32,000 nt of DNA from an uncultured archaeon (GTDB lineage: Archaea > Asgardarchaeota > Thorarchaeia > Thorarchaeales > Thorarchaeaceae), in the NCBI GenBank assembly GCA_964648855.1, contig CAZYLT010000012.1:1-32000 (forward strand), read 5' to 3'. Shown here piece after piece: positions 2,932 to 30,878 of the stretch; position 1 is the first letter of the stretch, and every line of letters begins with the position of its first letter. The position numbers were made by a program, and so were the translations under genes. Under the pieces are notes generated by a model. It was given only the letters and a program-made list of their open reading frames with translations. It ran no database searches and was not told the origin of the DNA.

Positions 2932-3067
2932 CCATAGAAAGACTCTGTGGATTTATTACGGAATGGGTCTAGTCCGCCAATGTTCTTATTATCAAATTCC
3001 TAATTAGATACCTGATAATTAGAACTGGTTTATTGAAGAGGGAAACCTCTAACTGGAGAAATTGGAA

Positions 3068-3664
3068 ATGCTGGAGAGAGATATCCTATTTGCCTTTGGT
3101 TCGGCACTGATAGAATTTGAGGCAACCCTCTTTCACAAGTATCTAGTACTCTCTGCTAGTGGTTCATTGATAACAAGAGAAATATTCCAAGAACATTTGC
3201 GAAGCATGGAGAAGAAGGGGTACGTTTCCAAAGCATACCTCCATGGAAAGGTCTGCTGGAAGAGAGAGATTAGTGTGAATGACTTAGCACAGGAGTTGTC
3301 TGAGGGCGATATCGATAAGGACAGACCCATTCTCGAATTTGTTAGGTCGAAGTATCGACATGGTACAAAAGTAGAAGATGGAATGGTGAGCGGATCGAGC
3401 AAGGTAGCCGAAGAAATTGTAAGAGTCATGGACAATCTGCTGCTTACTGAATATGCGGGTCAGGCAAAGGCTAACGCAAAAATAATCCATCATGCTAGAG
3501 AGATGCGGAAAGCATTGTCGAGATCTAGTCCAAACTTCATCGAGTATCTGGAAAGAAACGTACCGGAGCTATTGCAGCCCATGAAACAACTACTGGATAC
3601 AGAAGGAGAAGATCTTCTTCTACTCAGCCTTCATCTTATCGAGAGTAGGTATCCAGCAAGTTGA
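3068..3664 (+). CDS. Hypothetical protein, possible N-terminal winged-helix
   Basis: About 198-aa ORF with GGAG upstream. 'REIFQEHLRSMEKKGYVSKAYLHGKVCW' resembles a wHTH recognition helix plus wing. Confidence 0.6.
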   Translation: MLERDILFAFGSALIEFEATLFHKYLVLSASGSLITREIFQEHLRSMEKKGYVSKAYLHGKVCWKREISVNDLAQELSEGDIDKDRPILEFVRSKYRHGTKVEDGMVSGSSKVAEEIVRVMDNLLLTEYAGQAKANAKIIHHAREMRKALSRSSPNFIEYLERNVPELLQPMKQLLDTEGEDLLLLSLHLIESRYPAS

Positions 3665-3692
3665 TGGAGAACCACGTTGTGTTGCTCGATAT

Positions 3693-4772
3693 CTAGTATT
3701 TTCTCTCTACGAGAAACTGCGAAAGATTGAGAAGGAAATTCTTATACCTTTCAATCAGAGGCGGAATTGTTGCCTCCAATGCATCCTGTCCCTTTCCTAG
3801 CAGATCCATCATCAGATCCTCGGTTTCTCTTAAGGCGCCAGTATCACGAAACAGCTGCCGAACCTGTTCCACTTCGTCGTCATTCATGCCTTCTTTGCCT
3901 AAAAGATTTTCAAGCAAGTTCCTCTGCTCTTCATTCGCGTTCCTGTAAGCCAGAATCACCAGCATTGTCTTCTTACCTTCACGAATATCGCCATCTGCTG
4001 GTTTACCAGTTATTTCTTCGTCACCAAATGTTCCTAGGATATCATCTTGCATCTGAAAAGCCTGGCCAACTTTGATTCCATACTCTTGCAATGCATTCAG
4101 TTGTGATTCGGTGGCATTTGCCAAGGTGGCACCCATTAGTAGAGACTTCTCAAACAAAACGGCTGTTTTCATTGCAACCATTTCCAGATAAGTGCCCGGA
4201 GATGTATCCTTTTGGTTCATCATGGTCATCTCCAGCATGACACCATCAGCCAAGTATTGAAATGCCGTCTGGTATAGCCTCTGGCACTTAACTTCAATTT
4301 CAGGATCGAGTTGCGATTCGCTTATTGCTTCAGCCCCCATATTGAGGAGGGAATCACCACCAAGAATAGCCATAGTCATCCCGAAATCTTGAGCCTTTTC
4401 CATGTTCTTAGAACGGTTCTTGTACCAATCGCGATATGTGGCATGGAATGTTTTGCCCCCCCGTCTGGTTTCGTCATGGTCGATTAAATCATCATGCAGG
4501 AGTGATCCATTATGCAAAATCTCCACAGAACATGCTGCCCGATACAGATGGTCAATGTCCACTACTTCTCGAATGGCTTTGTACCCTATTGCAACAAGAA
4601 TGGGACGAAGCCGTTTTCCCCCGCGCATGATATACTCCCTGATATTGGCATAGTATTTTGTGTGCCAATCTCCCAATCGACTGACTTGTTCTATTTTTGA
4701 ATCTAGATACTTTGAGAGAGCATCGTTGACTCTCTGTTGCTCCTCTTTCACAATTGCCTCGTAGTCATTCAT
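3693..4772 (-). CDS. Trans-polyprenyl diphosphate synthase (IdsA/IspA/IspB family)
   Basis: GGKRLRP, first Asp-rich motif LLHDDLIDHDETRRG, KTA, and second motif AFQMQDDILG...GK...D..EGK. Start placed at ATG 4772 (MNDYEAIV). Confidence 0.9.
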   Translation of the reverse strand: MNDYEAIVKEEQQRVNDALSKYLDSKIEQVSRLGDWHTKYYANIREYIMRGGKRLRPILVAIGYKAIREVVDIDHLYRAACSVEILHNGSLLHDDLIDHDETRRGGKTFHATYRDWYKNRSKNMEKAQDFGMTMAILGGDSLLNMGAEAISESQLDPEIEVKCQRLYQTAFQYLADGVMLEMTMMNQKDTSPGTYLEMVAMKTAVLFEKSLLMGATLANATESQLNALQEYGIKVGQAFQMQDDILGTFGDEEITGKPADGDIREGKKTMLVILAYRNANEEQRNLLENLLGKEGMNDDEVEQVRQLFRDTGALRETEDLMMDLLGKGQDALEATIPPLIERYKNFLLNLSQFLVERKY

Positions 4773-5844: not shown

Positions 5845-6179
5845 TATATTGCAACTCGCGAAAAATAAGATAGCACTGCTAATTAAGAATTGCATGGGTG
5901 ACATCCTAGGCCCTAGTTGTGCATAATTATGGGCAGGAGATTCAGTCCTGTCATCTCTTCGGAAAGATCAAAACCCACAATGTTGACCAATATCTCTCCC
6001 TAAGTTGAATACCCTCACCTGAGAAATGATTTTCTCTCGTAGCAAAGAATCAGGAAATCATTGACATGAACAAGCAATCGGCATTGCAATCATAATCTCA
6101 TGGAGAGATGATAATCAGTGGGCAATTTGTCTGTTCTCCTCAGGAAGATTTAATTCCCGCTTCCAATAGATGAGCCTCA

Positions 6180-6521
6180 GTGAGTACCATGCAGATAGGC
6201 CTTCTAGACCCGGAAGATTTGTTTCTGATAAGCATGGAATCTCTGATAATCTTAGGTTTATTTATAGCCACAGTGCTCTCATATAAAATCAGAAAGAAGC
6301 ATCCAAGAATTACGTCAGAAGGATGGACTTCTATTGTAGCCGGCATTGCAGTCTTGATGTTTCACGCAATACTCGATGCCTTAGATACGCTTCAATTCGA
6401 TGATTTTCTGATTGACATCCTAAATCTTTTTGATGGGTTAACATTCGTGATTGGACTACTACTATTCTCCTATGGTATATATCGAATTGCTGAGAATGGT
6501 GCAAAACAGTGGGGGTTATGA
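6180..6521 (+). CDS. Small 3-TM membrane protein
   Basis: Three hydrophobic stretches, with 'LDALD' after TM2. Start could be GTG 6180 or ATG 6189. Confidence 0.7.
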   Translation: MSTMQIGLLDPEDLFLISMESLIILGLFIATVLSYKIRKKHPRITSEGWTSIVAGIAVLMFHAILDALDTLQFDDFLIDILNLFDGLTFVIGLLLFSYGIYRIAENGAKQWGL

Positions 6522-6524
6522 TTC

Positions 6525-6896
6525 ATGCAAGGAGTCATATGGGAATATCGCCCTCCTAGCGGCGTTCTGGAACTCGTAAAGGCATTCTTGGACCTCCTTA
6601 CAGTGGTTGGATTCGTGCTGCTACTTGTGGTTGTAATCTACACAGCAAGAAGGTATCCGATGATTGAGAGAAAGAGAACCTTCTATCCATTGCTCATATC
6701 TGCAGTTTTTGGAATTATCAGTTGTGCAATGGATGCATTTGATGAGTGGTTTTGGTTTACTCCAGGAGAATTCTATGACTACATCTGGAAGCCAATCAGA
6801 CTATGGTTGTTTCTCATTGGCATATTCCTTCTTATTGTTGCCTTCAGTCAATTCTATGACTTCTCAAGTCGTCTTTTTGGAGAAGAAAGCACATGA
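6525..6896 (+). CDS. Small 3-TM membrane protein, paralogue of the upstream gene
   Basis: Three hydrophobic stretches, with 'MDAFD' after TM2. ATGA overlap with the next gene. Confidence 0.7.
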   Translation: MQGVIWEYRPPSGVLELVKAFLDLLTVVGFVLLLVVVIYTARRYPMIERKRTFYPLLISAVFGIISCAMDAFDEWFWFTPGEFYDYIWKPIRLWLFLIGIFLLIVAFSQFYDFSSRLFGEEST

Positions 6897-7795
6897 ATGG
6901 TGTTGTGAAGACAGTATATGTCGTCCATTTGGCTGGCATTCCACTTGTAAGCGTAAATTTGGACGGATCTGCTAGGGACAATCGACAGGCATTTGAGGAA
7001 CTGTTCGGAGGCTTCACAAGCGCGATTAATAATCTCATAAAGGAATTGGGTCACGATGAGCTGAAGGCAATTGAATCAGGTGATGGGCTCTTAGTTTACA
7101 GCTCGAGAGATCCCATTCTCTTTGTTGTCCACGCGGAAAAACAGGAATATGAGCAGTTCGCCAAGATATTAGTAAAACAAATTGAAAATCAGTTCTTCCA
7201 GGAGTTTGAAGGACATCTTCAGGAAGAAGAGGCTTATGTGCGAGGGGAGAGATACCAACGATTCAAATCGAATATTCGCGATTTATACAACCACCTTATT
7301 AGAATAAGAAACGATCATCCTGAGCTCATCCAGTTTCTACCTTCTTTCATTCCACTTTCTCAGCTCTATATGGTTTTAAATTTGGGACTTGATATAATCA
7401 AGAAATTTCCAGATGACACGATAAAGCTGGTTAGGGAACTGAATAACTACTTCGGAAACAAGCCAGAACTTGAAGACCTAGTGGCCAGAACCATAGGGAG
7501 GTATGCTGGGTACCGTATTGCAAAGAAGGAATGTAAAGATAAGCTCGTGATACAACAAAGTGAGCTCCTGAATTTATTGAATGAAATCTCAGTGACAAAA
7601 TTTGACAGTGATGAAGAAGTCTACGATATCGTATTGTGCCCGGTTTGCCGCGGTAAGAGCGCTGATAGACCCATTTGTCACTTTTTTAGCGGGTTTATTG
7701 AGGGGGTATTAGGAAATCCTAGTATCTCTGTCGAAGAAATTTCATGTAGAGCTATGGGAGATACGAGCTGTAAATTTGCATTACATCGGCATTGA
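6893..7795 (+). CDS. Longin-like domain fused to V4R (Bet3/TRAPP-like fold) domain
   Basis: N-terminus 'VYVVHLAGIPLVS...LFGGFTSAINNLIKEL...LKAIESGDGLLVY...ILFVVHAE...LVKQIENQFFQEF' matches the Asgard longin/roadblock pattern. C-terminus 'IGRYAGYRIA...CPVC...PICHFFSGFIEGVL...VEEISCRAMGDTSCKF' is the V4R signature. Confidence 0.75.
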   Translation: MNGVVKTVYVVHLAGIPLVSVNLDGSARDNRQAFEELFGGFTSAINNLIKELGHDELKAIESGDGLLVYSSRDPILFVVHAEKQEYEQFAKILVKQIENQFFQEFEGHLQEEEAYVRGERYQRFKSNIRDLYNHLIRIRNDHPELIQFLPSFIPLSQLYMVLNLGLDIIKKFPDDTIKLVRELNNYFGNKPELEDLVARTIGRYAGYRIAKKECKDKLVIQQSELLNLLNEISVTKFDSDEEVYDIVLCPVCRGKSADRPICHFFSGFIEGVLGNPSISVEEISCRAMGDTSCKFALHRH

Positions 7796-18043: not shown

Positions 18044-20257
18044 CTATGTACGCTTGTAAACCCAGCGGCTCCATGAGCCCAGAGTAGGTAGTTCCTTGGG
18101 CATTCCCTTCCGCTCACGTATCTCAAGAATAAGCTCTTCTTGAAGGTTGGATGGTAACGCCTCAAAGCCTCTAAACTCGTAACCAAAGAAGCTTCTACCG
18201 GCAGTAGCACTTCTGAATTCGTCAGCAATACCTATTGTTTCTGATGTTGGTAGTGTGCCTTTGACCGCAACAGCCTCTTCCTCACCCTCTATTGTGACGA
18301 TCTGTCCACGATGGGAAGTTAGAACCTTGATTACCCCGCCCTGTGTGTCTGTTGGCGTCTTGATATCCACATTGAGGATAGGCTCGTACAGGCCAGGTCG
18401 CCCAGTCAGAAAGCTCAAGTTGAGAGCCGCACTGGTCATTGTGGCAACCTCGTTGTAACCTGTGTGAGCAGGGTCAGTATGAATTGTTGCATCTGTGATT
18501 GTTGCCTTGACACCCATTACAGGTTCATGAGCCAGCGGACCTGCTTCTACAAATTCCTTGAATGTGCTCTTGACGTAAGGCTCGATTCTATCAAATCGCT
18601 GTACACCACTCATCTGATCCACTAACATGCAATTCTCATAGACGTCAAGGATTTTCCGAGCCTCTTTGGCATCCCAATCTGCTTCATCTCTGAGAATCTG
18701 TGCACGTTCACGTTCTGGCATATCGATGGTGACTTTCTTCTTCTTGATCAGTTCAACAGTTTTCTCATCCAGAGGTTCAAGGAACATCTTGATTCGGTTG
18801 TGACCGTTTGGTGACTTGGTATGGAATTCATCTCCATGTTCCGTCATCTTCTCTCGATATACAATAATCGGCTCAGATACGTTGATCTTCACTTGTTCAT
18901 TAATCCTTTTTGTAAGGATTTCTATCTGGAGAGGGTCAATTCCATCAAGGCGATACTCACCGGACTCCTTGTCATGGAAGAATCTCGCCGTTGGGTCTGC
19001 CATAATCCATTTGCGTACGACTTCACCAAGCTTAGCAACGTCCTGTGGGTCAACGGGCTTAATGCTCCGACTAACAACGGGCTCACTGACATATTCAATT
19101 GCCTCAAAGCCTTTCATATCAGAACCTTCAGCTACGAAGGTTTCTCCAGAAGGACACATGAAGCCAAATATTGAGAATAGGTTTCCGGCGGGTATCTCTT
19201 CCATGGGAAGGATATCAGTAATTTCTTGAACGCCTAACCTTCGAACTCTAGCGGTTTGCTTCATGTTCACAAGTCTGATTTCTTGACCAGAGTGTAGAGT
19301 ACCTGAGAACACTCTTCCAATGAGAGTTGGCCTCTTGCTTTTCGGGTCGACAAAAATCTTGGTAATCATTCCTAGGAGCGGACCATCAGGGTCGCATTTG
19401 AGTAATGCCTTTCCTTCGGGACTCTCAGGGTCACCCTTCCATATTCGCGGGATTTTGTAGATTTGAGCTTCTTTGGGATTTGGAAGATGTTTGACGATCA
19501 TCTCAAGTATAGCATCATCGAGTGGAAGATTCTCTCGGAGCCAACGTTCGTCGCCCTCGTTATATTTCTCAAAAACTACTGTGGGTTTTATATTTTTCTT
19601 CTTGAGGGTTTCCATGGTAAATGCCCATCCAGTCTTTGCACTGCCAATAGCAACGGTTCCCTGTTCGAAGCTGACTCGCCAATTCTTCGTGAAGTCATCG
19701 GGAGCAACTTTCTTGATGAGTTCATTCACCTTTGCAATGATAATGTCAATTCTCTCGTACACTTTTTCAGGTGGCAACTTGAGCTCGTTAATCAGTCTGT
19801 CAACTTTATTGACAAACAGTACTGGCTTGCAGGCTTCTCCACCGACAGCCAATTTGATATTGGTTTCAGTTTGAGTCATTACACCTTCGAGTGCATCCAC
19901 CAGAATGACTACACCATCACTGGCTCTCAGCGCACGCGAAACCTCGCCCGTGAATGACAAGTGGCCGGGCGTATCGGATAGCTGTACTAAGTACTCGGTA
20001 TCATCCACTTCGAAGTTCAATAGAACCACAGAGGTAAAGATTGTAATTCCTCTCTCCTGTTCTTCTTCATCGCTGTCAGTCATCAATGCCTGACCAGCTG
20101 CAGCATCACTCATAAGACCAGCACGACGCATCAAATAGTCGGTTGTTGTCGTCTTACCGTGGTCGATGTGCGCGGATATGCTAATAATGCGCTTCTGTTC
20201 GTAATTATCTGACTTGATGAGCCTCTTAATTGCATCAGGCTCCTTAATCTTAACCAT
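18044..20257 (-). CDS. Elongation factor 2 paralogue (aEF-2p-like)
   Basis: AHIDHGKTT, EQERGIT, DTPGH, NKVD, KSPNGHN, EPI, with full EF-2 length (737 aa). Divergent motifs GKTTTTD, GHLSFTGEV and HTDPAHTGYNE. The gene is not within an S12-S7 operon. Confidence 0.85.
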   Translation of the reverse strand: MVKIKEPDAIKRLIKSDNYEQKRIISISAHIDHGKTTTTDYLMRRAGLMSDAAAGQALMTDSDEEEQERGITIFTSVVLLNFEVDDTEYLVQLSDTPGHLSFTGEVSRALRASDGVVILVDALEGVMTQTETNIKLAVGGEACKPVLFVNKVDRLINELKLPPEKVYERIDIIIAKVNELIKKVAPDDFTKNWRVSFEQGTVAIGSAKTGWAFTMETLKKKNIKPTVVFEKYNEGDERWLRENLPLDDAILEMIVKHLPNPKEAQIYKIPRIWKGDPESPEGKALLKCDPDGPLLGMITKIFVDPKSKRPTLIGRVFSGTLHSGQEIRLVNMKQTARVRRLGVQEITDILPMEEIPAGNLFSIFGFMCPSGETFVAEGSDMKGFEAIEYVSEPVVSRSIKPVDPQDVAKLGEVVRKWIMADPTARFFHDKESGEYRLDGIDPLQIEILTKRINEQVKINVSEPIIVYREKMTEHGDEFHTKSPNGHNRIKMFLEPLDEKTVELIKKKKVTIDMPERERAQILRDEADWDAKEARKILDVYENCMLVDQMSGVQRFDRIEPYVKSTFKEFVEAGPLAHEPVMGVKATITDATIHTDPAHTGYNEVATMTSAALNLSFLTGRPGLYEPILNVDIKTPTDTQGGVIKVLTSHRGQIVTIEGEEEAVAVKGTLPTSETIGIADEFRSATAGRSFFGYEFRGFEALPSNLQEELILEIRERKGMPKELPTLGSWSRWVYKRT

Positions 20258-20292
20258 CTTTTTCACACTCGTTTTGGGGAATAACCATAATC

Positions 20293-20356
20293 TGACCCGA
20301 ACTGCCAGAGTTAACGCGAGAGAACTCGGCGGGGTCACCGAAAGCTATTCGGTGGC
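20293..20356 (-). promoter_or_regulatory. Putative structured 5' UTR of the EF-2 paralogue
   Basis: Two adjacent GC-rich hairpins lie between a TTTTAAG box (about 20380-20386) and the start codon. Confidence 0.5.
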
Positions 20357-21702: not shown

Positions 21703-22470
21703 ATGCCCAAGGCATTCCGAGTAATGATGCCATTTTGGAATGAAATGACCCATGGGCAGTTCCTGTCTGAGAGCAAGAAGACAAAAATCGCGGTGCTTGT
21801 GACAGGCTCCCTTGAGGCGCATGGTAGGCACTTACCTCTCGGTACAGATGCCCTTCTTCCGGAGTATCTCGCCAAGCATATAGCTGAGAACACAAACGCA
21901 ATGGTGCTCCCTGCTATTCCATTTGGCGATAGCTGGATTTTCAATCAGTTCGAAGGCACGATTTCGGTCAGGCCAACGACCCTCATCGAGTTCTACACAG
22001 ACATTATGAAAGGCATATTCATTCATGGATTCAAGTATATCGTTGCGCTGAATGGACACGGAGGAAATACGTCTCATTTAGAGAGTGCTGCCAGACTAGC
22101 CACCAAGAAGGGTGAGCGGGTGGTCATAATAGTAAATTGGTGGCGAGACCTTGCCAAGGAAGTGAGAAATGAGCTGGTAGAAACTCCGATGGGGCATGCG
22201 GGGGAGGATGAAACCTCTCAAATGCTATTCGTTAAATCAGACTTGGTCGATATGGAATCCGCATATCCTTCGAGAGTCGGGACGAAGTATCGAGTCGTAT
22301 CAGCCTGGTACAGAGAGGATCTCTATCCTAGGGCGACCTATGGTGACCCCACTAAAGCAACAGTAGAGAAGGGAGAAGCAATAATGGAACAAGCAAAACA
22401 AGAGATTATTAAACTCATTGAAGAACTTGAGAGGGGAAAGCTACCTCTCGATGGTAGAAACTCGGATTAG
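21703..22470 (+). CDS. Creatininase family amidohydrolase
   Basis: GSLEAHGRHLPLGTD, GTIS, NGHGGN, HAGEDETS, GDPTKATVEKG. Start may instead be ATG 21725/21728. Confidence 0.9.
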   Translation: MPKAFRVMMPFWNEMTHGQFLSESKKTKIAVLVTGSLEAHGRHLPLGTDALLPEYLAKHIAENTNAMVLPAIPFGDSWIFNQFEGTISVRPTTLIEFYTDIMKGIFIHGFKYIVALNGHGGNTSHLESAARLATKKGERVVIIVNWWRDLAKEVRNELVETPMGHAGEDETSQMLFVKSDLVDMESAYPSRVGTKYRVVSAWYREDLYPRATYGDPTKATVEKGEAIMEQAKQEIIKLIEELERGKLPLDGRNSD

Positions 22471-23369
22471 AGCCCAACCCGAAAGATGAGAGAGTCTCTA
22501 AGAATACGTTGAAACATTCTCAAGAGATTTTTACCTTCAGTGGCTATGGTAGAGAAGACGGGATATCCTTCAACATCCAACATGTCGACCATATAGTCAA
22601 CCGGTAACGCATTTGGAAGATCTCGCTTATTCAATGACACAACAATGGGCATGTTAGCTATCCTGTCGGTCCCAAGTGCAATCTTTAATTCTTCTAACGA
22701 AGCCAAATTCTCGTTTGTCATTTCCGGTCGAGAGTCAGCCATGAATATGATGCCATCAGCATCACGAAGGACATTGATCCTTTGACGGGCATGCCGCCTC
22801 TGCCCTGCCACCGTAAAGACATCAAATACTATTTTCTCACTAGCAGTGACAGGTACAAAATCAAAGAAAGTGGTTCGCCCCAGATCGTCTGCAATCTCAA
22901 TAAGCTTGCCTTTTGATAGGGACCTGACATGAGAAAACAACCATCTTAAAGCCGTAGTCTTTCCGGATAGAGAGGGGCCATAGAAAACTATCTTGATGTG
23001 AATTCTTCCCTGATCATCTCGCTTCAGAGCATGACCTGGAACCATCTCAGCTATGGAGTGTTCACCTATTTTTGCATCTTCAGCCAAGCTTTTTGTTTGC
23101 TCCGTATCGATTCTGAAACTCGCTGATGATGCAAGAATACTCCCATCTGGAGGAGTTGAATCCTGATACACTTTCTTTGTTGGAGGTTCTTTCTTCGTAG
23201 GAAATGCCTTAGGTTCGAGCGTAGGTTTCTCGGTTTTCGTTGGTTCAGCCCCATCCTTTCGCGCCTCAGATTCTGAAGACGGCGGTTGCTCTACGGCTTC
23301 TTCCTTTTCTTCCTTCTTCCCCTTTAATCGGGCAATGATTCTACGGAATAGGGACAAACCTCTCTCCAA
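22467..23369 (-). CDS. MglA-like small GTPase with N-terminal extension
   Basis: IKIVFYGPSLSGKTT (G1), RTTFFDF (G2), FTVAGQ (G3), ADGIIFMADS, NKRDL (G4). About 120 aa of N-terminal extension. Confidence 0.88.
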   Translation of the reverse strand: MERGLSLFRRIIARLKGKKEEKEEAVEQPPSSESEARKDGAEPTKTEKPTLEPKAFPTKKEPPTKKVYQDSTPPDGSILASSASFRIDTEQTKSLAEDAKIGEHSIAEMVPGHALKRDDQGRIHIKIVFYGPSLSGKTTALRWLFSHVRSLSKGKLIEIADDLGRTTFFDFVPVTASEKIVFDVFTVAGQRRHARQRINVLRDADGIIFMADSRPEMTNENLASLEELKIALGTDRIANMPIVVSLNKRDLPNALPVDYMVDMLDVEGYPVFSTIATEGKNLLRMFQRILRDSLIFRVGL

Positions 23370-24584: not shown

Positions 24585-25265
24585 ATGTTTCAGCAGGTGA
24601 CAGAAGGAATCCATATTCAAGTAAGTAATACATTTGATTCAAATATTGGCTTAATCCAGTCAGGAGATAGATTCGTATTAATAGATGCAGGAACTGGGGC
24701 ACATGTCCAGAATCTGGAGAAAGGGCTCTCTTCATTGGACCATTCTATAGAAGATATCACAGATGTGGTTCTCACACATAGTCATATCGATCATATTGGA
24801 GGGGTGGTTCCCATAATGGACCGAGCCGATGGTGTACTTCATCTCCACGAGAAAGAGGCCAATCGCATAAACTCGGGAGACATGCAGTTGACCCTGTCAA
24901 GCACCTTTGGGGTTCAGCTTCCTGAGATAAAGATTGAGAGATCCTTCAAAGATGGAGATGCATTGAAGCTAGGAGAATTGAAGGCAACAGTTGTACATAC
25001 CCCCGGACACTCTGAGGGGAGTTGCTGTTTCCATTTTGAGGAGGAGGGAGTGATGTTTACTGGTGATACCCTCTTTGCAGACGGGAGTTTTGGCAGGGTT
25101 GATTTTCCAACCGGTGATCCGCAGCAACTAGTCGATTCTCTGGAAACCCTAACAAAGATTGACTTCAGTACCGCATTGCCAGGCCATATGCGCCCAATCC
25201 TTGGTAATGCTCAGAGGTCAGCAATGTCATCATATAAGACAGCCAAATCATGGTTTAATGTGTAG
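24585..25265 (+). CDS. Metallo-beta-lactamase fold hydrolase (glyoxalase II-like)
   Basis: LIDAG, THSHIDHIGG, HTPGHS.GS, FTGDTLF, GRVDF, PGH. Confidence 0.9.
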   Translation: MFQQVTEGIHIQVSNTFDSNIGLIQSGDRFVLIDAGTGAHVQNLEKGLSSLDHSIEDITDVVLTHSHIDHIGGVVPIMDRADGVLHLHEKEANRINSGDMQLTLSSTFGVQLPEIKIERSFKDGDALKLGELKATVVHTPGHSEGSCCFHFEEEGVMFTGDTLFADGSFGRVDFPTGDPQQLVDSLETLTKIDFSTALPGHMRPILGNAQRSAMSSYKTAKSWFNV

Positions 25266-26244
25266 AAAGCGTCTTTACCAATTCATCCGTCGCCATCGTG
25301 ATATCTTCATCGGCAACATCTTCGTTCTCTAGGTACTTGGCTTCGATGGCCTTGACAAGTGCATACACTGCTTCACTTGTTGGAGTTTCCAGACCGAGTT
25401 CATGTGCCATCTTAATGACGGCGCCGGTAATCGTTTCAATTTCGGTCCGTTTCCGGGCCTTGATATCTTGGAGCATTGAATTTGTATTATTTGCAGTTGC
25501 CTTTGCAGTGCCAAGGGTATAGCGAATTGGATCATTTGTATTTAGTTCTATTCCAAGTGCCTTCACAACTTCGACCGTTTCTTCTACTAATTTGATAACG
25601 AGTTCCCTTAGCATGGCACTGCTGTATACCTCACCATTCTTCATGTCAGTGATGGCTCCAATTGGGTTTATGCCACAATTGACGATGGTCTTAGTCCATA
25701 CTACGCCCTCGATGTTTCTACTACCCTGTGCCTTAATATTGGCATCATTCAGAAGTGAAACTGTCATGTCGATTAGCTCGTCGTTTTCAGGGTAGTGCGA
25801 GCCAATTTCTGTTATTCCTTCTCCAGTGGCATTTACTACCCCGGGAGACTCCAAGATTGCACCCATACATGTTGTTGCTCTCAATACTCTTTTTGTTTCA
25901 AGAACTTCTGCAATCTGATTTTCGGTACCGAGACCATTCTGGACAACTACAATATATGCACCATTATCAACTAGGTGGCGAACCTTTCGTGCAGCTTCAA
26001 CCGAGTCATATGCTTTGGTAGTTATGAACACTATGTCGGCCACCTTTATCTTGTCGGCACTTGTTTCAGCGTTGATATTCAACGCAGTTTCACCAACAAC
26101 ACCCTTCATCCGCAGTCCATTCTTCTTAATCTCTTCAACATGGGGCCAGCGTGCGATTAGGGTAACGTTACCCGGCTGTGCCATCTCCAGCATACCGCCA
26201 AATAGGCTTCCTATGGCACCAGCACCCATTATGACTATCTTCAT
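25255..26244 (-). CDS. panE: 2-dehydropantoate 2-reductase
   Basis: GAGAIG, TKAYD, QNGLG, W.K...NCGINP, N.NSMLQD...R.TE. Located in an operon with PPS and PoK. Confidence 0.93.
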   Translation of the reverse strand: MKIVIMGAGAIGSLFGGMLEMAQPGNVTLIARWPHVEEIKKNGLRMKGVVGETALNINAETSADKIKVADIVFITTKAYDSVEAARKVRHLVDNGAYIVVVQNGLGTENQIAEVLETKRVLRATTCMGAILESPGVVNATGEGITEIGSHYPENDELIDMTVSLLNDANIKAQGSRNIEGVVWTKTIVNCGINPIGAITDMKNGEVYSSAMLRELVIKLVEETVEVVKALGIELNTNDPIRYTLGTAKATANNTNSMLQDIKARKRTEIETITGAVIKMAHELGLETPTSEAVYALVKAIEAKYLENEDVADEDITMATDELVKTLSTH

Positions 26245-27035
26245 CTCTTTTCCTCCTTGGGGTCTGCGAAACCAACCGCTTGCTTTTCTAAGTGCTCAAT
26301 AATTCTTTCGATAACAGTCTCTAGATTCTCCCTGTTATCAAAAGCCTCGATCATTGCATCTAGTTTCTCTTCTGGTTCTTCTGACAAGCTACGGGCACGT
26401 TCAACCATCATTGGCATCGCCCGAACTATGTTATCAACGATAGTAATGTCCGAATAGATGGCAGTTCGACTCATAGGATTCAGATCAATTGTGACCACAA
26501 ACTTGCCAACTCGTTTTAGAGCCTCCGTGCGGTCACCATCTTCGAGTGGAACCAATACTAGGTCCGCAGAACCAATTCCATCGGGGTCGACCTTTCGCCT
26601 ATTGCTGCTTAACTCAGGAATAGTTTCAGAGGGGCGGTTAACTGTGCCAAGAACACCTTTCGCTCCTGCATCCGTTAAAGCCTTCAGAATAGCATCCTCT
26701 CTTTCCTTTCTGTAGTAGAAGAGGTTGATTTCTAGTGGGGCTCCACAAATCTCGGATAACTCCACAAGCTCTTCTGGTACCAGAGAGCAAACATTACCAT
26801 TAACGCTAATCACTGGATGGTCCGCTAAAAGCATGGATGCCACAGCTGCATCGATGGCCTTCATGGCTTGGTCATTGGTATTCTCGCCAATTAGATAATC
26901 AAACGCTTCTCCGCGTCCATGTGCCAGTAGGCCTGCAGTAGCTACAATATTATCTTGATGCCCTTCAATTATTCTCTCACGCGTTTCTAGAGATACTCGT
27001 CGGGGGTGATCGGATGGGATCTCTATCTTTGTCAA
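26241..27035 (-). CDS. pps: Phosphopantothenate synthetase (4-phosphopantoate--beta-alanine ligase)
   Basis: IPSDHPR..SL..RE, AHGRGEAFDYLIGE, PVISVNGN, EINLFY, VPLEDGDRTEAL, IDLNPMSRT, DNIVRA. TTG start at 27035 overlaps the PoK stop. Confidence 0.93.
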   Translation of the reverse strand: MTKIEIPSDHPRRVSLETRERIIEGHQDNIVATAGLLAHGRGEAFDYLIGENTNDQAMKAIDAAVASMLLADHPVISVNGNVCSLVPEELVELSEICGAPLEINLFYYRKEREDAILKALTDAGAKGVLGTVNRPSETIPELSSNRRKVDPDGIGSADLVLVPLEDGDRTEALKRVGKFVVTIDLNPMSRTAIYSDITIVDNIVRAMPMMVERARSLSEEPEEKLDAMIEAFDNRENLETVIERIIEHLEKQAVGFADPKEEKR

Positions 27036-27988
27036 TGCAGTAAACCTCCTCCCCTGTTGGCAATTGTTGTCACAAGTGTTTCCTCTGGCATCCAATAATC
27101 AGTCAGTATATTACGGGCTCTATCCACGTCATTGTGCGAACATAGACAAAACAGCGAATCTCCTAGCATCACCATGCTAGAATTCTTCAGATTGGCACTA
27201 TCTAATTCTGACAAAGCTGCTTCTGTTCTTTCGCTCATAAGCCCTGTGAAATGGGCGAAATCTCTTGAAGCCCTGATAAATTGTTCACAGGTGGGGTCAT
27301 CTCGCATGTCATCAACTAGCTGGCTCCCTCGTTCGTTGATCCGGTGTCTATACTCTTTATCATTTAGCACCGTTTTAGTTTCTAGACCACCTGAACCAGC
27401 CAAGACAACAGTGAAGGGCGACTCGCATCGGAAGGGATTAATCTCTCCAATCCCAGGCGCACCAGGTCGTACCCGGATTTCCATCCCGCCAGTGAATTGA
27501 GCAATAACATCACCAAGGCCACCTTGCTTTGCAACCTCAGCATAGTGAGCATATTGCGCAGCAACTTCTGGTGTCATTTCAGAATCTAGGATGTAGTTCA
27601 TAGCGAGGGCGGTACCCAATGCACCAGCACCTGATGCACCGTATCCGACGCCTATGGGTAGCTCTGATTTGTGCTCTACCGTAGCTGAGATTCTTTTTCC
27701 GTATACTTCTGACACTTGTTCAACCACCATTTCTGTGATTTCTGCCTCTATGCGCTTGCCATTGTATGTAACTAATACCTCATGTTCATCTTGTTCTATT
27801 AGTTGGATAGTGGTGACGGTTCCCGCGGTGATACAAAATCCTGCACCGGTTGAACCTCTCTTCAAGAGATTGCTACTGGTATCATGGATTCTGAAAAATC
27901 CGGTGATGTGCCCAGGAACAAATGCTGTTGCAGTTCCAACTAAAGGTATCAATGTTTCCGTCAACTCATCCTGAACTAGGCCGTTCAT
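27032..27988 (-). CDS. pok: Pantoate kinase (GHMP family)
   Basis: AFVPGHITGFF, GSTGAG, LPIGVGYGASGAGAL, AH.AEV...GLGDV, PGAPG, MVMLGDSLF. Start may be TTG 27964. Confidence 0.93.
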   Translation of the reverse strand: MNGLVQDELTETLIPLVGTATAFVPGHITGFFRIHDTSSNLLKRGSTGAGFCITAGTVTTIQLIEQDEHEVLVTYNGKRIEAEITEMVVEQVSEVYGKRISATVEHKSELPIGVGYGASGAGALGTALAMNYILDSEMTPEVAAQYAHYAEVAKQGGLGDVIAQFTGGMEIRVRPGAPGIGEINPFRCESPFTVVLAGSGGLETKTVLNDKEYRHRINERGSQLVDDMRDDPTCEQFIRASRDFAHFTGLMSERTEAALSELDSANLKNSSMVMLGDSLFCLCSHNDVDRARNILTDYWMPEETLVTTIANRGGGLLH

Positions 27989-28067
27989 AAAGATATGTAT
28001 ACGATTTTATCAACATGGATATACGCCTCTATAATGTATATACAAAGCCCTCTTTAACAGTGGGTCG

Positions 28068-28928
28068 TCAATCTTCGTCCTTTCCCAGAGGAACAAGACT
28101 GGTGTATTGCTTTACGCGAGGGTCATCGTATGGTGGGGGGGCAGGATACGCCCATCGAGCATCGATATCGCGTCCGCTCAAGTCCCATACTTTGAAGCTG
28201 CCCGAAGACCACGTCAGTGGACTGAAGCCAAGAAGCAGAGTCTGGGTCCGCCAACTGGTGACCACCATATGTCGGTTCATTCCTGCAGTTGGCACAACCA
28301 AGAATGCATTAGAGAGTTCCATCAGAAGAGATGTGCTGATTCTATAGAAAAAGCTGTACGTCTTTCTGTGTTCTTCGCTGCCCTGCTGTCTCAAGTCACT
28401 AAGGTATCGATGAATGGTCTGATCGTGAACATCACCGTCCATGACATCAGAGAGATCCTCCACATCGACAGTGATGGCGGTCTCGAAGTAATATGCAAGG
28501 GGGAACTCGGTGATATGAAAGATGGCGAATTTGTCTTTGGTGATGGTCTCGTATAACTTCTGGAAAATGCTCTGTTTTGAGAAGAGCATATTGGGGTCCA
28601 TCTTCGCTGGTTCGAAATTATCCGCCTCTTCCGAGATGGTCAGTCGGAATAAGTCATCCAGCATGTCGCCATCATATCCAAAGTGTATCATATGATATGG
28701 CAACTCGTTGGAGTCCTCATCCATCCTGTTCGATGATACGAGGAATTCATTGAAGTCGCGCTTGAAGATGTCAACCTCATTGTCACCGTCTACAACAAAT
28801 AATGACTGTGATGGAGTGCCAAAATCCGAGATTACTTTCTCATAGGCATCAAATCGTGCCTTCTTCTCTTTCCTCAAGGTTAGCATTTGCCTCCTCGCGG
28901 ATAAGAAATTCTGGACACGTCCTTTCAC
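28068..28928 (-). CDS. Hypothetical protein
   Basis: 286-aa ORF with globular-protein composition and AGGT upstream of the GTG. No family recognised. Confidence 0.65.
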   Translation of the reverse strand: MKGRVQNFLSARRQMLTLRKEKKARFDAYEKVISDFGTPSQSLFVVDGDNEVDIFKRDFNEFLVSSNRMDEDSNELPYHMIHFGYDGDMLDDLFRLTISEEADNFEPAKMDPNMLFSKQSIFQKLYETITKDKFAIFHITEFPLAYYFETAITVDVEDLSDVMDGDVHDQTIHRYLSDLRQQGSEEHRKTYSFFYRISTSLLMELSNAFLVVPTAGMNRHMVVTSWRTQTLLLGFSPLTWSSGSFKVWDLSGRDIDARWAYPAPPPYDDPRVKQYTSLVPLGKDED

Positions 28929-29245
28929 ACCTGCTCTAGATTTCAGACTTTGTAGTTAGTTCATTGTTCGTTGTTGCCCTTTGTTGTTGCGACGCTGTAG
29001 CCGACGGCGAAACCACTAGGGCGTGCGGTGTCGGTGGGAAGGCTGAATGATTATGCAACATATATTCTTTGCCCACCAACACATTCCCATCCATTCTAAC
29101 GAAAATTTCACTGAAAATTTCAAAATGAAACATCACATCAGCCAAATTTTTGTGTAAAGAACCAAATTGACGTTACAAGAACCAGAATCCACATTCGAAT
29201 AGATTAAGAATGAACACGTAATCGTTAAAATTGGATGAATCGGCC

Positions 29246-30478
29246 ATGCAACACACATCAAAACTAATTATAGGAAGTCACAGCAATCTTCTGTCAGGTA
29301 AATCCATTGCACTATGTGTAACTGGAAGCGTGGCAGCTGTTGAAACCGTGCATTTGGCAAGAAGGTTGATGCGGCATGGCGCGGAAGTATATTGTGTCAT
29401 GAGTAACTCCAGTCAACAGATAATTCATCCCCATCTTTTGGAGTGGGCAACCGGAAACTCAGTGGTGACAGAACTCACAGGACAGATTGAGCATGTCACC
29501 TTGGCAGGAAAACACTCAGGCCGGGTTGACCTTATTCTAATTGCACCGGCTACTGCGAATACCATAGGCAAGATTGCCAATGGAATAGATGATACCCCCG
29601 TGACTACAACCGTGTCCTCGGGCATCGGAGCACATATTCCAGTCGTTGTCGTTCCTGCCATGCATGAGAGCATGTATGACCATCCAGCAGTGAATGAGAA
29701 TATCAAGAAGCTGAAGATGATTGGAGTCACAGTGATGACCCCAAGGATAGAGGAGGCTAAGGCGAAGATACCCAGTGTTGATGCCATTGTATCTCAGGTG
29801 ATCAGTTTGCTCGGGCCTAGAGACTTGGTTGGAAAGCAATTCCTAGTAAGCGCAGGACCTACTCGCGGCTGGTTAGACAAGGTCCGGTTCATTACAAACC
29901 CATCTACTGGAAAGATGGGAATTGCTCTTGCCGAAGAAATTATCTCTCGTGGTGGAAATGTTACGGTTGTTCTAGGGCCCACGGGAGAAAGACCGCCAGA
30001 TAATGCTGAAGTCATTAAAGTGGACACATCTGAAGAAATGCAGGAAGCAATTCTTGACAAAATAAAGACAAACACGGTTGATGCATTCATCTCTGCGGCT
30101 GCAGTGTTGGACTATATACCATCGAGGAAGGAAGACCGGAAACGCCCATCTGGAAAACCCTATACTATTGAGTTAGTACCCACCGCTAAAATAATAGAGG
30201 AGGCTCGTAAACTGGAAAGCGACCTTTTCATTGTGGGATTCAAGGTAGAGTCAGGAGTTTCAGATAAGGAACTGGTGGCCAGAGGAAAAGAAAAAATCGA
30301 GGCAGGCATTTGTGATATGGTGGTTGCCAACGATGCAGCCCGAGAAGGAGTCGCCTTTGGGACGGATACAAATCAGGTTATCATAATTGGTAAAGAGGAC
30401 ATTCAGACGAAGATACCCTTATCATCAAAACGCGAAATAGCAGGCGCTATTGTAGATGCAATGCTTGAACTGCTTTAA
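29246..30478 (+). CDS. coaBC: Bifunctional phosphopantothenoylcysteine decarboxylase/synthetase
   Basis: TGSVAA, EHV, APATANTIGK.A.GI.D, PAMH..MY, AGPTR..LD.VRFITN.STGKMG, AAAV.DY, VGFK.E, VAND, SKRE.A. Confidence 0.95.
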   Translation: MQHTSKLIIGSHSNLLSGKSIALCVTGSVAAVETVHLARRLMRHGAEVYCVMSNSSQQIIHPHLLEWATGNSVVTELTGQIEHVTLAGKHSGRVDLILIAPATANTIGKIANGIDDTPVTTTVSSGIGAHIPVVVVPAMHESMYDHPAVNENIKKLKMIGVTVMTPRIEEAKAKIPSVDAIVSQVISLLGPRDLVGKQFLVSAGPTRGWLDKVRFITNPSTGKMGIALAEEIISRGGNVTVVLGPTGERPPDNAEVIKVDTSEEMQEAILDKIKTNTVDAFISAAAVLDYIPSRKEDRKRPSGKPYTIELVPTAKIIEEARKLESDLFIVGFKVESGVSDKELVARGKEKIEAGICDMVVANDAAREGVAFGTDTNQVIIIGKEDIQTKIPLSSKREIAGAIVDAMLELL

Positions 30479-30512: not shown

Positions 30513-30878
30513 CTAAAGTACATCCAATAGTTTGTCTGACATTCTCTTCATGTCAACAAAGATTAAGCCAAGCTGTGCGTCTGCCTTTGCAAGAACCAAT
30601 AGAAGGGCACTTTCCCCGACAGAGGTCATTAGTGTGTAGCCTTTGTCACCCTTCACATAAATCTCCAAGAGGTTACCCCTATCTAGCTCATTAGTCGCCT
30701 TCTCTCCTAAAGATAGCATTGCGGCACTTATTGCAGCCACTCTCTCCTGCTCACTCTCAGGAAGTGCGGAAGATATCATCAGTCCATCCAGCGACACCAG
30801 CGCAGCTCCTTCAACTCCTGGCACTGTTTCAAAATCTTTAATAGCGGCATTTATTTTATCAACACGGCTTGACATCAT
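30513..30878 (-). CDS. Roadblock/LC7 domain protein (MglB-like)
   Basis: VEGAALVSLDGLMISSAL, ERVAAISAAMLSLGEK, IYVKGDKGY, LLVLA...AQLGLI. GAGGT SD upstream. Confidence 0.92.
   Translation of the reverse strand: MMSSRVDKINAAIKDFETVPGVEGAALVSLDGLMISSALPESEQERVAAISAAMLSLGEKATNELDRGNLLEIYVKGDKGYTLMTSVGESALLLVLAKADAQLGLIFVDMKRMSDKLLDVL

Follow-up and report, generated by a model that had tools for sequence, protein, structure and literature searches.

What would a protein that joins in one chain the two folds of the eukaryotic TRAPP machinery do in an archaeon, and which partners would it have there? The TRAPP complexes, the guanine nucleotide exchange factors (GEFs) of Rab GTPases, are built from longin and Bet3/V4R folds, and the joining of these folds bears on the origin of the endomembrane system; the Asgard versions have been studied so far as isolated soluble proteins without known partners. 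The question is raised by three adjacent genes, here called A, B and C, at positions 6180-7795 of a 32,000-nucleotide stretch of Thorarchaeaceae DNA (assembly GCA_964648855.1, contig CAZYLT010000012.1, positions 1 to 32,000 of the forward strand), referred to below as the window. The closest homologues of gene C carry the label Candidatus Thorarchaeota, and the source assembly comprises 3.1 Mb in 62 contigs at 94.6% completeness. The module places both folds in a single polypeptide, whose gene shares a conserved operon with those of two dedicated membrane proteins, and it has a specific predicted docking surface. We consider it likely, at a probability of roughly 0.6, that the three products form a membrane-docked longin-V4R complex that acts as a sensor or adaptor. 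As a defined three-protein system, the module makes the history of TRAPP-like parts before the eukaryotes open to testing.

Three genes and the two folds of protein C

All three genes lie on the forward strand. Gene A (6180-6521) encodes 113 residues from a GTG start, with an alternative ATG at 6189, gene B (6525-6896) encodes 123 residues, and gene C (6893-7795) encodes a soluble longin and V4R/Bet3-like fusion of 300 residues. The tight spacing, noted in the original prediction, is confirmed by the open reading frames (ORFs) and by the sequence itself, in which 3 nucleotides (6522-6524) separate A from B and an ATGA stop/start overlap (6893-6896) joins B to C. Judged by the dozens of conserved homologues of each, A, B and C are real genes and not chance ORFs.

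Protein C has 39 homologue clusters. Its AlphaFold2 model, made with 31 homologues, has a mean predicted local distance difference test score (pLDDT) of 83.7 and a predicted TM-score of 0.79, the least confident part being helix alpha1 (residues 30-60, pLDDT 51-58). Secondary structure, VIA-align and Foldseek place a longin domain at residues 1-140 (6893..7312, forward strand). In the model its elements follow the order beta-beta-alpha-beta-beta-beta-alpha-alpha (strands 5-12 and 17-22, helix 31-52, strands 58-62, 65-72 and 75-81, helices 84-109 and 124-141), which is the beta2-alpha1-beta3-alpha2-alpha3 topology of longins, a sheet of five strands packed between helices. VIA-align matched residues 1-140 to the longin domains of VAMP7 (Z 13.6), Sec22 (Z 13.4) and SRX (Z 13.3), to synbindin (Z 12.3) and sedlin (Z 11.3), and to the roadblock protein MglB (Z 8.4); the best longin matches (Z 13.6-12.3) had a root-mean-square deviation (rmsd) of 2.1-3.4 Å over 113-127 aligned residues. 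The Foldseek matches of the N-terminal part were longin and roadblock proteins. At the level of the fold, C belongs to the longin superfamily; at the level of Pfam profiles its N-terminus matched neither Longin (PF13774) nor Fuz_longin_1 (PF19036), and its relatives reached these profiles below threshold only (Fuz_longin_1 in 5 of 25, best E 4e-4; Longin in 3 of 25, best E 1.2e-3). The matches are no closer to TRAPP subunits than to the longins of SNAREs or SRX. A fold search of the Atlas gave single-domain or weak matches only (TM-score <0.5 by model).

The remainder of the protein, residues ~145-300 (7325..7792, forward strand), is a V4R/TRAPPC3-like domain according to Pfam and VIA-align. 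The Pfam V4R profile (PF02830) matches residues 244-298 with an E value of 8.9e-15 (55 bits against a cut-off of 31), which places C in this family, and all 25 of the relatives match it as well. With VIA-align, residues 166-300 gave Z scores of 12.4 for PoxR, 11.5 for DmpR, 11.4 for Thor-TRAPPC3 (7YH2), 11.0 for Bet3 and 10.6 for MJ1460, at an rmsd of ~3 Å over 111-131 aligned residues; since these values are tied, the domain is not assignable more closely to Bet3 than to bacterial V4R. The Pfam TRAPP/Bet3 profile (PF04051) did not match C and appeared below threshold in 4 of 25 relatives (best E 0.014), the sequence similarity to 7YH2 is insignificant (E 0.58), and a weak NCBIfam match to MsvR (E 8e-5) falls far under the cut-off. 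Five cysteines (C249-P-x-C252, C262, C285 and C293; 7637..7771, forward strand) show no variation in 31 close homologues and little or none in 25 distant ones, and presumably form a zinc site. They are positioned where Thor-TRAPPC3 and PoxR bind zinc, in both cases through four cysteines (PMC10933270). The same part of C holds two further conserved motifs, FPxxTIxxxR (173-181) and NEISV (230-234). The last strand spans residues 293-299 of 300 and the protein ends directly after it, so that C has no C-terminal tail like the one ascribed to Bet3. Both halves of the fusion proposed in the original prediction therefore stand, the longin-like N-terminus by the AlphaFold2 model, Foldseek and VIA-align, and the Cys-rich V4R C-terminus by Pfam, the Bet3/TRAPPC3 fold matches and the five invariant cysteines.

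Hydropathy shows three hydrophobic segments each in A (~14-34, 48-70 and 78-100) and B (~18-40, 53-72 and 88-110). The two proteins have a common layout, with a short acidic N-terminus, a first transmembrane segment (TM1), a basic loop containing (H/Y)P, TM2 ending at its outer end in D-x-x-D (D-x-x-D-T in A), TM3 and a short conserved tail. In A this tail contains an invariant tryptophan, W111, and the alignment of 15 sequences has 20 invariant columns; the alignment of B has 37. Lys and Arg abound in the loop after TM1 of both proteins, and the N-terminus and the TM2-TM3 loop are acidic, so that the positive-inside rule would put the N-termini outside and leave the C-terminal tails on the cytoplasmic side. 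A and B matched no Pfam or NCBIfam family above cut-off, the noise-level matches including DUF981 (6 of 15, best E 0.006) and ETR1_N (3 of 15, best E 0.0075); the nearest protein Atlas clusters are unnamed, and the sources label both proteins hypothetical. Compared directly, A and B gave nothing in BLASTP (E 1.7) and a weak match by hhalign of the Thorarchaeota families (E 0.008, probability 4.8%). Divergent B-like ORFs of distant Asgard lineages, however, also match the A profile, with E values of 1e-5 to 7e-9 among the cross-hits; ORFs that match both profiles occur at L082 (B 3e-13, A 7e-9), L085 (B 4e-17, A 4e-10) and L042 (B 1e-17, A 3e-8). Because of these cross-hits and the collinear motifs we take A and B to be old, distant paralogues, as had been supposed for the two three-TM proteins.

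Read-through of the TGA between A and B was considered as well. The two genes share a frame in the window, but the orthologous pairs of L010 and L019 lie in different frames, and no read-through is therefore implied. Fused B-A or B-C forms were not found among the longer proteins searched, which is weak evidence only.

Conservation of the trio across Asgard archaea

Within the class Thorarchaeia, a full-length C is present in 14 genomes of six genera, and a partial copy lies at a contig end in a seventh genus. Orthologues of A and B adjoin every full-length C that has enough flanking sequence, in 15 Thorarchaeota genomes, and the outer flanking genes vary. A broader profile retrieved full-length longin-V4R fusions from 49 of 400 Asgard genomes in eleven families. 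In 28 of 31 loci from ten Asgard families other than Thorarchaeota, A-like and B-like genes lie directly beside C, in the order A-B-C, in the order C-A-B, or as an A-B pair convergent with C; two of the remaining loci are contig ends and the third is that of genome G394. All-against-all clustering of the neighbouring genes brought out no further widely shared family. Since the linkage persists through rearrangement across distant Asgard lineages, it is strong evidence that A, B and C work together, and the co-conservation that the original prediction had asked to see is present at every flanked Thorarchaeota locus and at nine-tenths of the others.

In one relative (L008:4233-6903), the A-B pair is separated from C by a gene on the minus strand that encodes 260 residues and belongs to no family.

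The predicted complex and its possible roles

The structure of A, B and C was predicted in one job with three alignments, with C as the scored partner. The complex scored 0.66 against 0.03 for the best control, a mark that 58 of 80 solved complexes and 2 of 110 mismatched pairs attain, and the runs had at least 83% of contacts in common with a partner pLDDT of at least 76. The predicted contacts involve residues 110-112 of A, 45-46, 49 and 116-121 of B, and 173-178, 181, 230-234, 247-248, 250, 253 and 286 of C. On B, the main predicted docking site consists of the loop Y44-P45...R49 and the C-terminal tail R116-L117-F-G119-E. On C, every predicted contact belongs to the V4R domain, close to the CPxC knuckle, and none involves the longin domain; the contact elements of A and B are all on the side that the positive-inside rule assigns to the cytoplasm. 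Of the 17 residues of C at the predicted interface, 12 are at least 90% conserved, a level that 79 of all 300 residues reach (Fisher p = 1e-4, and p = 0.002 when the V4R half is taken alone). P173 and the CPxC knuckle are retained even at 20-30% identity, in relatives that have the TI..R and NEISV motifs only in part. The interface of C with the two membrane proteins, which had been put forward as a check, was thus returned by the predictor, and the model supports binding of C to A and B through these surfaces.

In some Thorarchaeota a second longin-V4R paralogue of ~305 residues lies directly upstream of A-B-C (L007:521-1438; L011:1486-2403; L040:80-415). Because it retains the motifs that make up the predicted docking surface, it might enter a heterodimer or occupy a second docking site on A.

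In the complex that we favour, A and B would probably pair as a heterodimer of six helices, their N-termini outside and their C-termini in the cytoplasm. Its cytoplasmic elements, mainly the post-TM1 loop and the RLFGE tail of B with the QWG tail of A in addition, would clamp the V4R domain of C at the FPxxTIxxxR and NEISV motifs and the CPxCR zinc knuckle. The V4R domain itself would be a zinc-stabilized pocket of the kind that binds small hydrophobic ligands, and the longin domain would be free in the cytoplasm to serve as a protein-binding platform. Most likely, the complex would perceive something at the membrane, within it or in the V4R pocket, and couple this to a partner that the longin domain holds in the cytoplasm, possibly a small GTPase. 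It counts in favour of such a sensor or adaptor that V4R relatives of solved structure bind hydrophobic ligands and zinc (PMC10933270).

Several observations weigh against the sensor or adaptor. C is missing from most other Thorarchaeota genomes, several of them 96-99% complete, and a module absent from most genomes of the class is accessory; in addition, G394 keeps C without A and B. A contributes just three predicted contact residues. The calibration of the complex score holds only roughly here, for a job with its own alignments and three chains, and the score is the model's own confidence. Moreover, the predictor reads the alignment, so that the conservation of the contact residues and the predicted contacts are not independent.

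Of the alternatives, the one that survives best, although unlikely, is a regulated conduit, in which the six helices of A and B would make a channel, a transporter or a cation-binding site and C would be a gating or regulatory subunit that senses a ligand, a metal or redox state through its V4R domain. Charged residues lie in or at the ends of the helices of A (E20, H62, D66, D69 and D85) and of B (K19, D23, D70, D73, E74, K89 and R92), both proteins have the matching D-x-x-D at the outer end of TM2, and C is predicted to dock on the cytoplasmic face. Cysteines of V4R domains act as redox sensors in MsvR-type regulators, although the MsvR match of C is weak. Against this, A and B match no transporter or channel family above noise, subunits with three TM segments are small for a transporter, and the longin domain would be left without a role.

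Next in rank, and likewise improbable, is a proto-TRAPP, a membrane-tethered longin and Bet3-like unit that would recruit a small GTPase as a GEF or GTPase-activating protein (GAP) platform. In its favour, C unites the two core folds of TRAPP, longin domains often serve as platforms for GTPases, and small-GTPase genes do stand beside the module in three other Asgard lineages. In family f27 (G381 and G382), a Ras-like GTPase of 192 residues, a 267-residue protein of no family and C form a co-directional operon with overlapping stop and start codons, and the two three-TM genes are convergent right behind it (L072:1591-3843 in G381, with the GTPase at 1591-2169, the 267-residue protein at 2180-2983 and C at 2980-3843; L075:2992-5263 in G382). 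In family f17 (G211, L083:2010-5012), a 352-residue protein, in which an N-terminal domain of ~170 residues is fused to a Ras-family GTPase (E 7e-49), is encoded on the same strand directly upstream of C-A-B. In family f30 (G393-395, all three genomes of one genus), genes for an Arf/Roc-like GTPase and a 189-residue protein of no family are convergent to the module (L078:3001-5033 in G394; also L084 and L085). These genomes carry few Ras-like genes for their size (f27, 10-11 in 2.4-2.7 Mb; G395, 35 in 3.6 Mb; G211, 60 in 3.8 Mb; the source genome has ~23 Ras-like GTPases), and GTPase neighbours in 3 of ~11 families correspond to a binomial probability of ~0.005, a crude and post hoc figure. 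We read these neighbours as a weak hint and not as support for GEF activity.

Other observations count against a proto-TRAPP. No GTPase gene adjoins the trio at any of the 15 Thorarchaeota loci, nor at those of most other families, and the GTPase neighbour of G211 is missing in G210 of the same family. C lacks the Bet3-like C-terminal tail, which in the structure of TRAPP with Ypt1 is said to be inserted into the nucleotide pocket of the Rab, and the fold matches of its longin domain do not favour TRAPP subunits over the SNARE and SRX longins. The original prediction had named two possible partners in the window, an Arf-like GTPase (22467-23369, reverse strand; 300 residues, with the Arf-family domain at residues 123-292 and an N-terminal extension of ~120 residues without a family match) and a roadblock/LC7 protein (Robl_LC7, E 2.7e-21; 30513-30878, reverse strand, at the window edge). 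Both genes lie 15-23 kb from the trio among housekeeping genes and have no counterparts beside the orthologous loci; lacking synteny with the trio, they were rejected as partners of the module. Nor do the loci show the conserved GTPase and roadblock/longin neighbours of an MglA/MglB-type switch.

The more far-reaching form of this proposal holds that the module is a surviving prokaryotic TRAPP-like machine, whose longin and Bet3-fold unit is fixed to the membrane by an integral pair and recruits or activates a small GTPase; we rate it below the tethered recruitment platform, and doubtful. Should the TRAPP-like reading be true, the pairing of the two folds for the control of membrane GTPases would predate eukaryotes, and would have begun as a membrane-integral unit that later became soluble and multi-subunit. 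If it acts on a GTPase, the module would be the first TRAPP-like unit seen anchored to a prokaryotic membrane; if not, it would still represent a new family of archaeal membrane-associated V4R complexes.

Lower again, and rather improbable, stands a role in the handling of lipids or pigments, in which the V4R pocket would take a membrane lipid or isoprenoid from A and B for sensing, transfer or modification, by analogy with the palmitate in Bet3 and with the name 4-vinyl reductase. Solved V4R relatives hold hydrophobic ligands in internal cavities, and ligand binding or transport has been suggested for Thor-TRAPPC3 (PMC10933270); the V4R domain of C is predicted to sit directly on A and B, and a polyprenyl synthetase gene lies 1.3 kb upstream of the trio in the window. 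This gene is, however, no conserved neighbour of the trio, no catalytic residues are known, and the longin domain would go unexplained. That the three genes are mere neighbours with unrelated functions is hardly credible, for although A and B are without a known family, the adjacency is kept over eleven Asgard families, in three arrangements and amid unrelated flanks, the coding regions are closely packed or overlapping, and the complex prediction passes.

Known relatives and other features of the window

The architecture of C is known in outline. Tran, Akil, Senju & Robinson (2024) solved the structure of Thor-TRAPPC3 and noted one Heimdallarchaeota longin-TRAPPC3 fusion sequence, with an AlphaFold2 homodimer model in their Supplementary Fig. 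10g (PMC10933270). That fusion shares with C the order of an N-terminal longin and a C-terminal TRAPPC3/V4R domain, a comparison made by architecture, and full-length relatives of C occur in families whose proteins bear Hodarchaeales labels. The published case differs in that it is one sequence presented as a predicted homodimer, with no mention of membrane partners, operon or distribution; the word 'transmembrane' is nowhere in the supplement. Full-text literature searches returned no other paper on a longin-V4R fusion and none on membrane partners or an operon. The description of the system as undescribed thus fails for the fusion and holds for the membrane partners and the operon; the membrane pair, the operon, the distribution and the docking surface appear to be new. 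The same authors report that GTPase genes generally lie outside operons with such genes (PMC10933270).

Residues 166-300 of C share their fold with Thor-TRAPPC3 (7YH2 and 7YH3), PoxR (5FRU), DmpR (6IY8), MopR (5KBG) and MJ1460 (2OSO), and with Thor-TRAPPC3 and PoxR also the place of the cysteine cluster. Thor-TRAPPC3 and the bacterial V4R proteins, however, are stand-alone or fused to AAA+ or DNA-binding outputs and dimerize through N-terminal helices, whereas in C the V4R domain comes after a longin domain and has membrane proteins as its predicted docking partners.

The eukaryotic TRAPP core (Bet3/TRAPPC3 with Bet5/TRAPPC1, Trs23/TRAPPC4 and Trs20/TRAPPC2) brings together the same two fold types, and C matches 3cue_A, a chain of a yeast TRAPP subassembly, with a Z score of 11.0. 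TRAPP differs in that it is a soluble assembly of many separate subunits, none of them integral to the membrane, and is a proven Rab-GEF; C is a single chain, has no extended C-terminal tail and leaves the Pfam TRAPP family unmatched. A TRAPP-type core of separate Bet3-type and longin-type subunits was not seen at the locus, where both folds lie in one chain, and apart from the duplicated C of some genomes the operon has no further Bet3-type or longin-type gene. The Bet3 of TRAPP has no zinc site (PMC10933270).

A longin-type domain held at the membrane by a separate anchored partner is found in the signal recognition particle (SRP) receptor, where the SRX longin of SR-alpha sits on membrane-anchored SR-beta, and in Ragulator/MglB-type platforms; SRX is also among the best fold matches of the longin domain of C (Z 13.3, rmsd 2.3 Å). 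There, it is the longin or roadblock domain that touches a GTPase, whereas in the present module the anchor is a three-TM pair without a GTPase and the predicted contact is made through the V4R domain.

Upstream of the trio, an A/T-rich box, ATTTAATT (6148..6155, forward strand), lies ~25-30 nucleotides before the GTG at 6180. Picked out by reading only, it may be a candidate archaeal TATA element, in which case the trio transcript could be leaderless or have a short leader. A second conserved cluster with longin-like proteins is present on contig C18 of the same genome, at ~23.1-26.0 kb (L002:504-3445), and in other Thorarchaeota genera (L025-L038). In it, tandem genes encode proteins of 308 and 427 residues with longin-like N-termini (sub-threshold matches to Fuz/Mon1 longin and weak matches to the longin domain of C). 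A ParA/MinD-type ATPase gene comes next, and a gene for a polytopic membrane protein is transcribed divergently. Elsewhere in the window, an EF-2/EF-G-type GTPase gene, assigned by Pfam domains, lies at 18044-20338 on the reverse strand, apart from ribosomal protein genes. A coenzyme A pathway cluster at 25255-30478 comprises ketopantoate reductase, phosphopantothenate synthetase, a GHMP-type kinase and a Dfp flavoprotein, and a gene at 965-2893 on the forward strand encodes a 642-residue protein with a zinc-dependent phospholipase C domain and a GIFT/DUF4350-like region.

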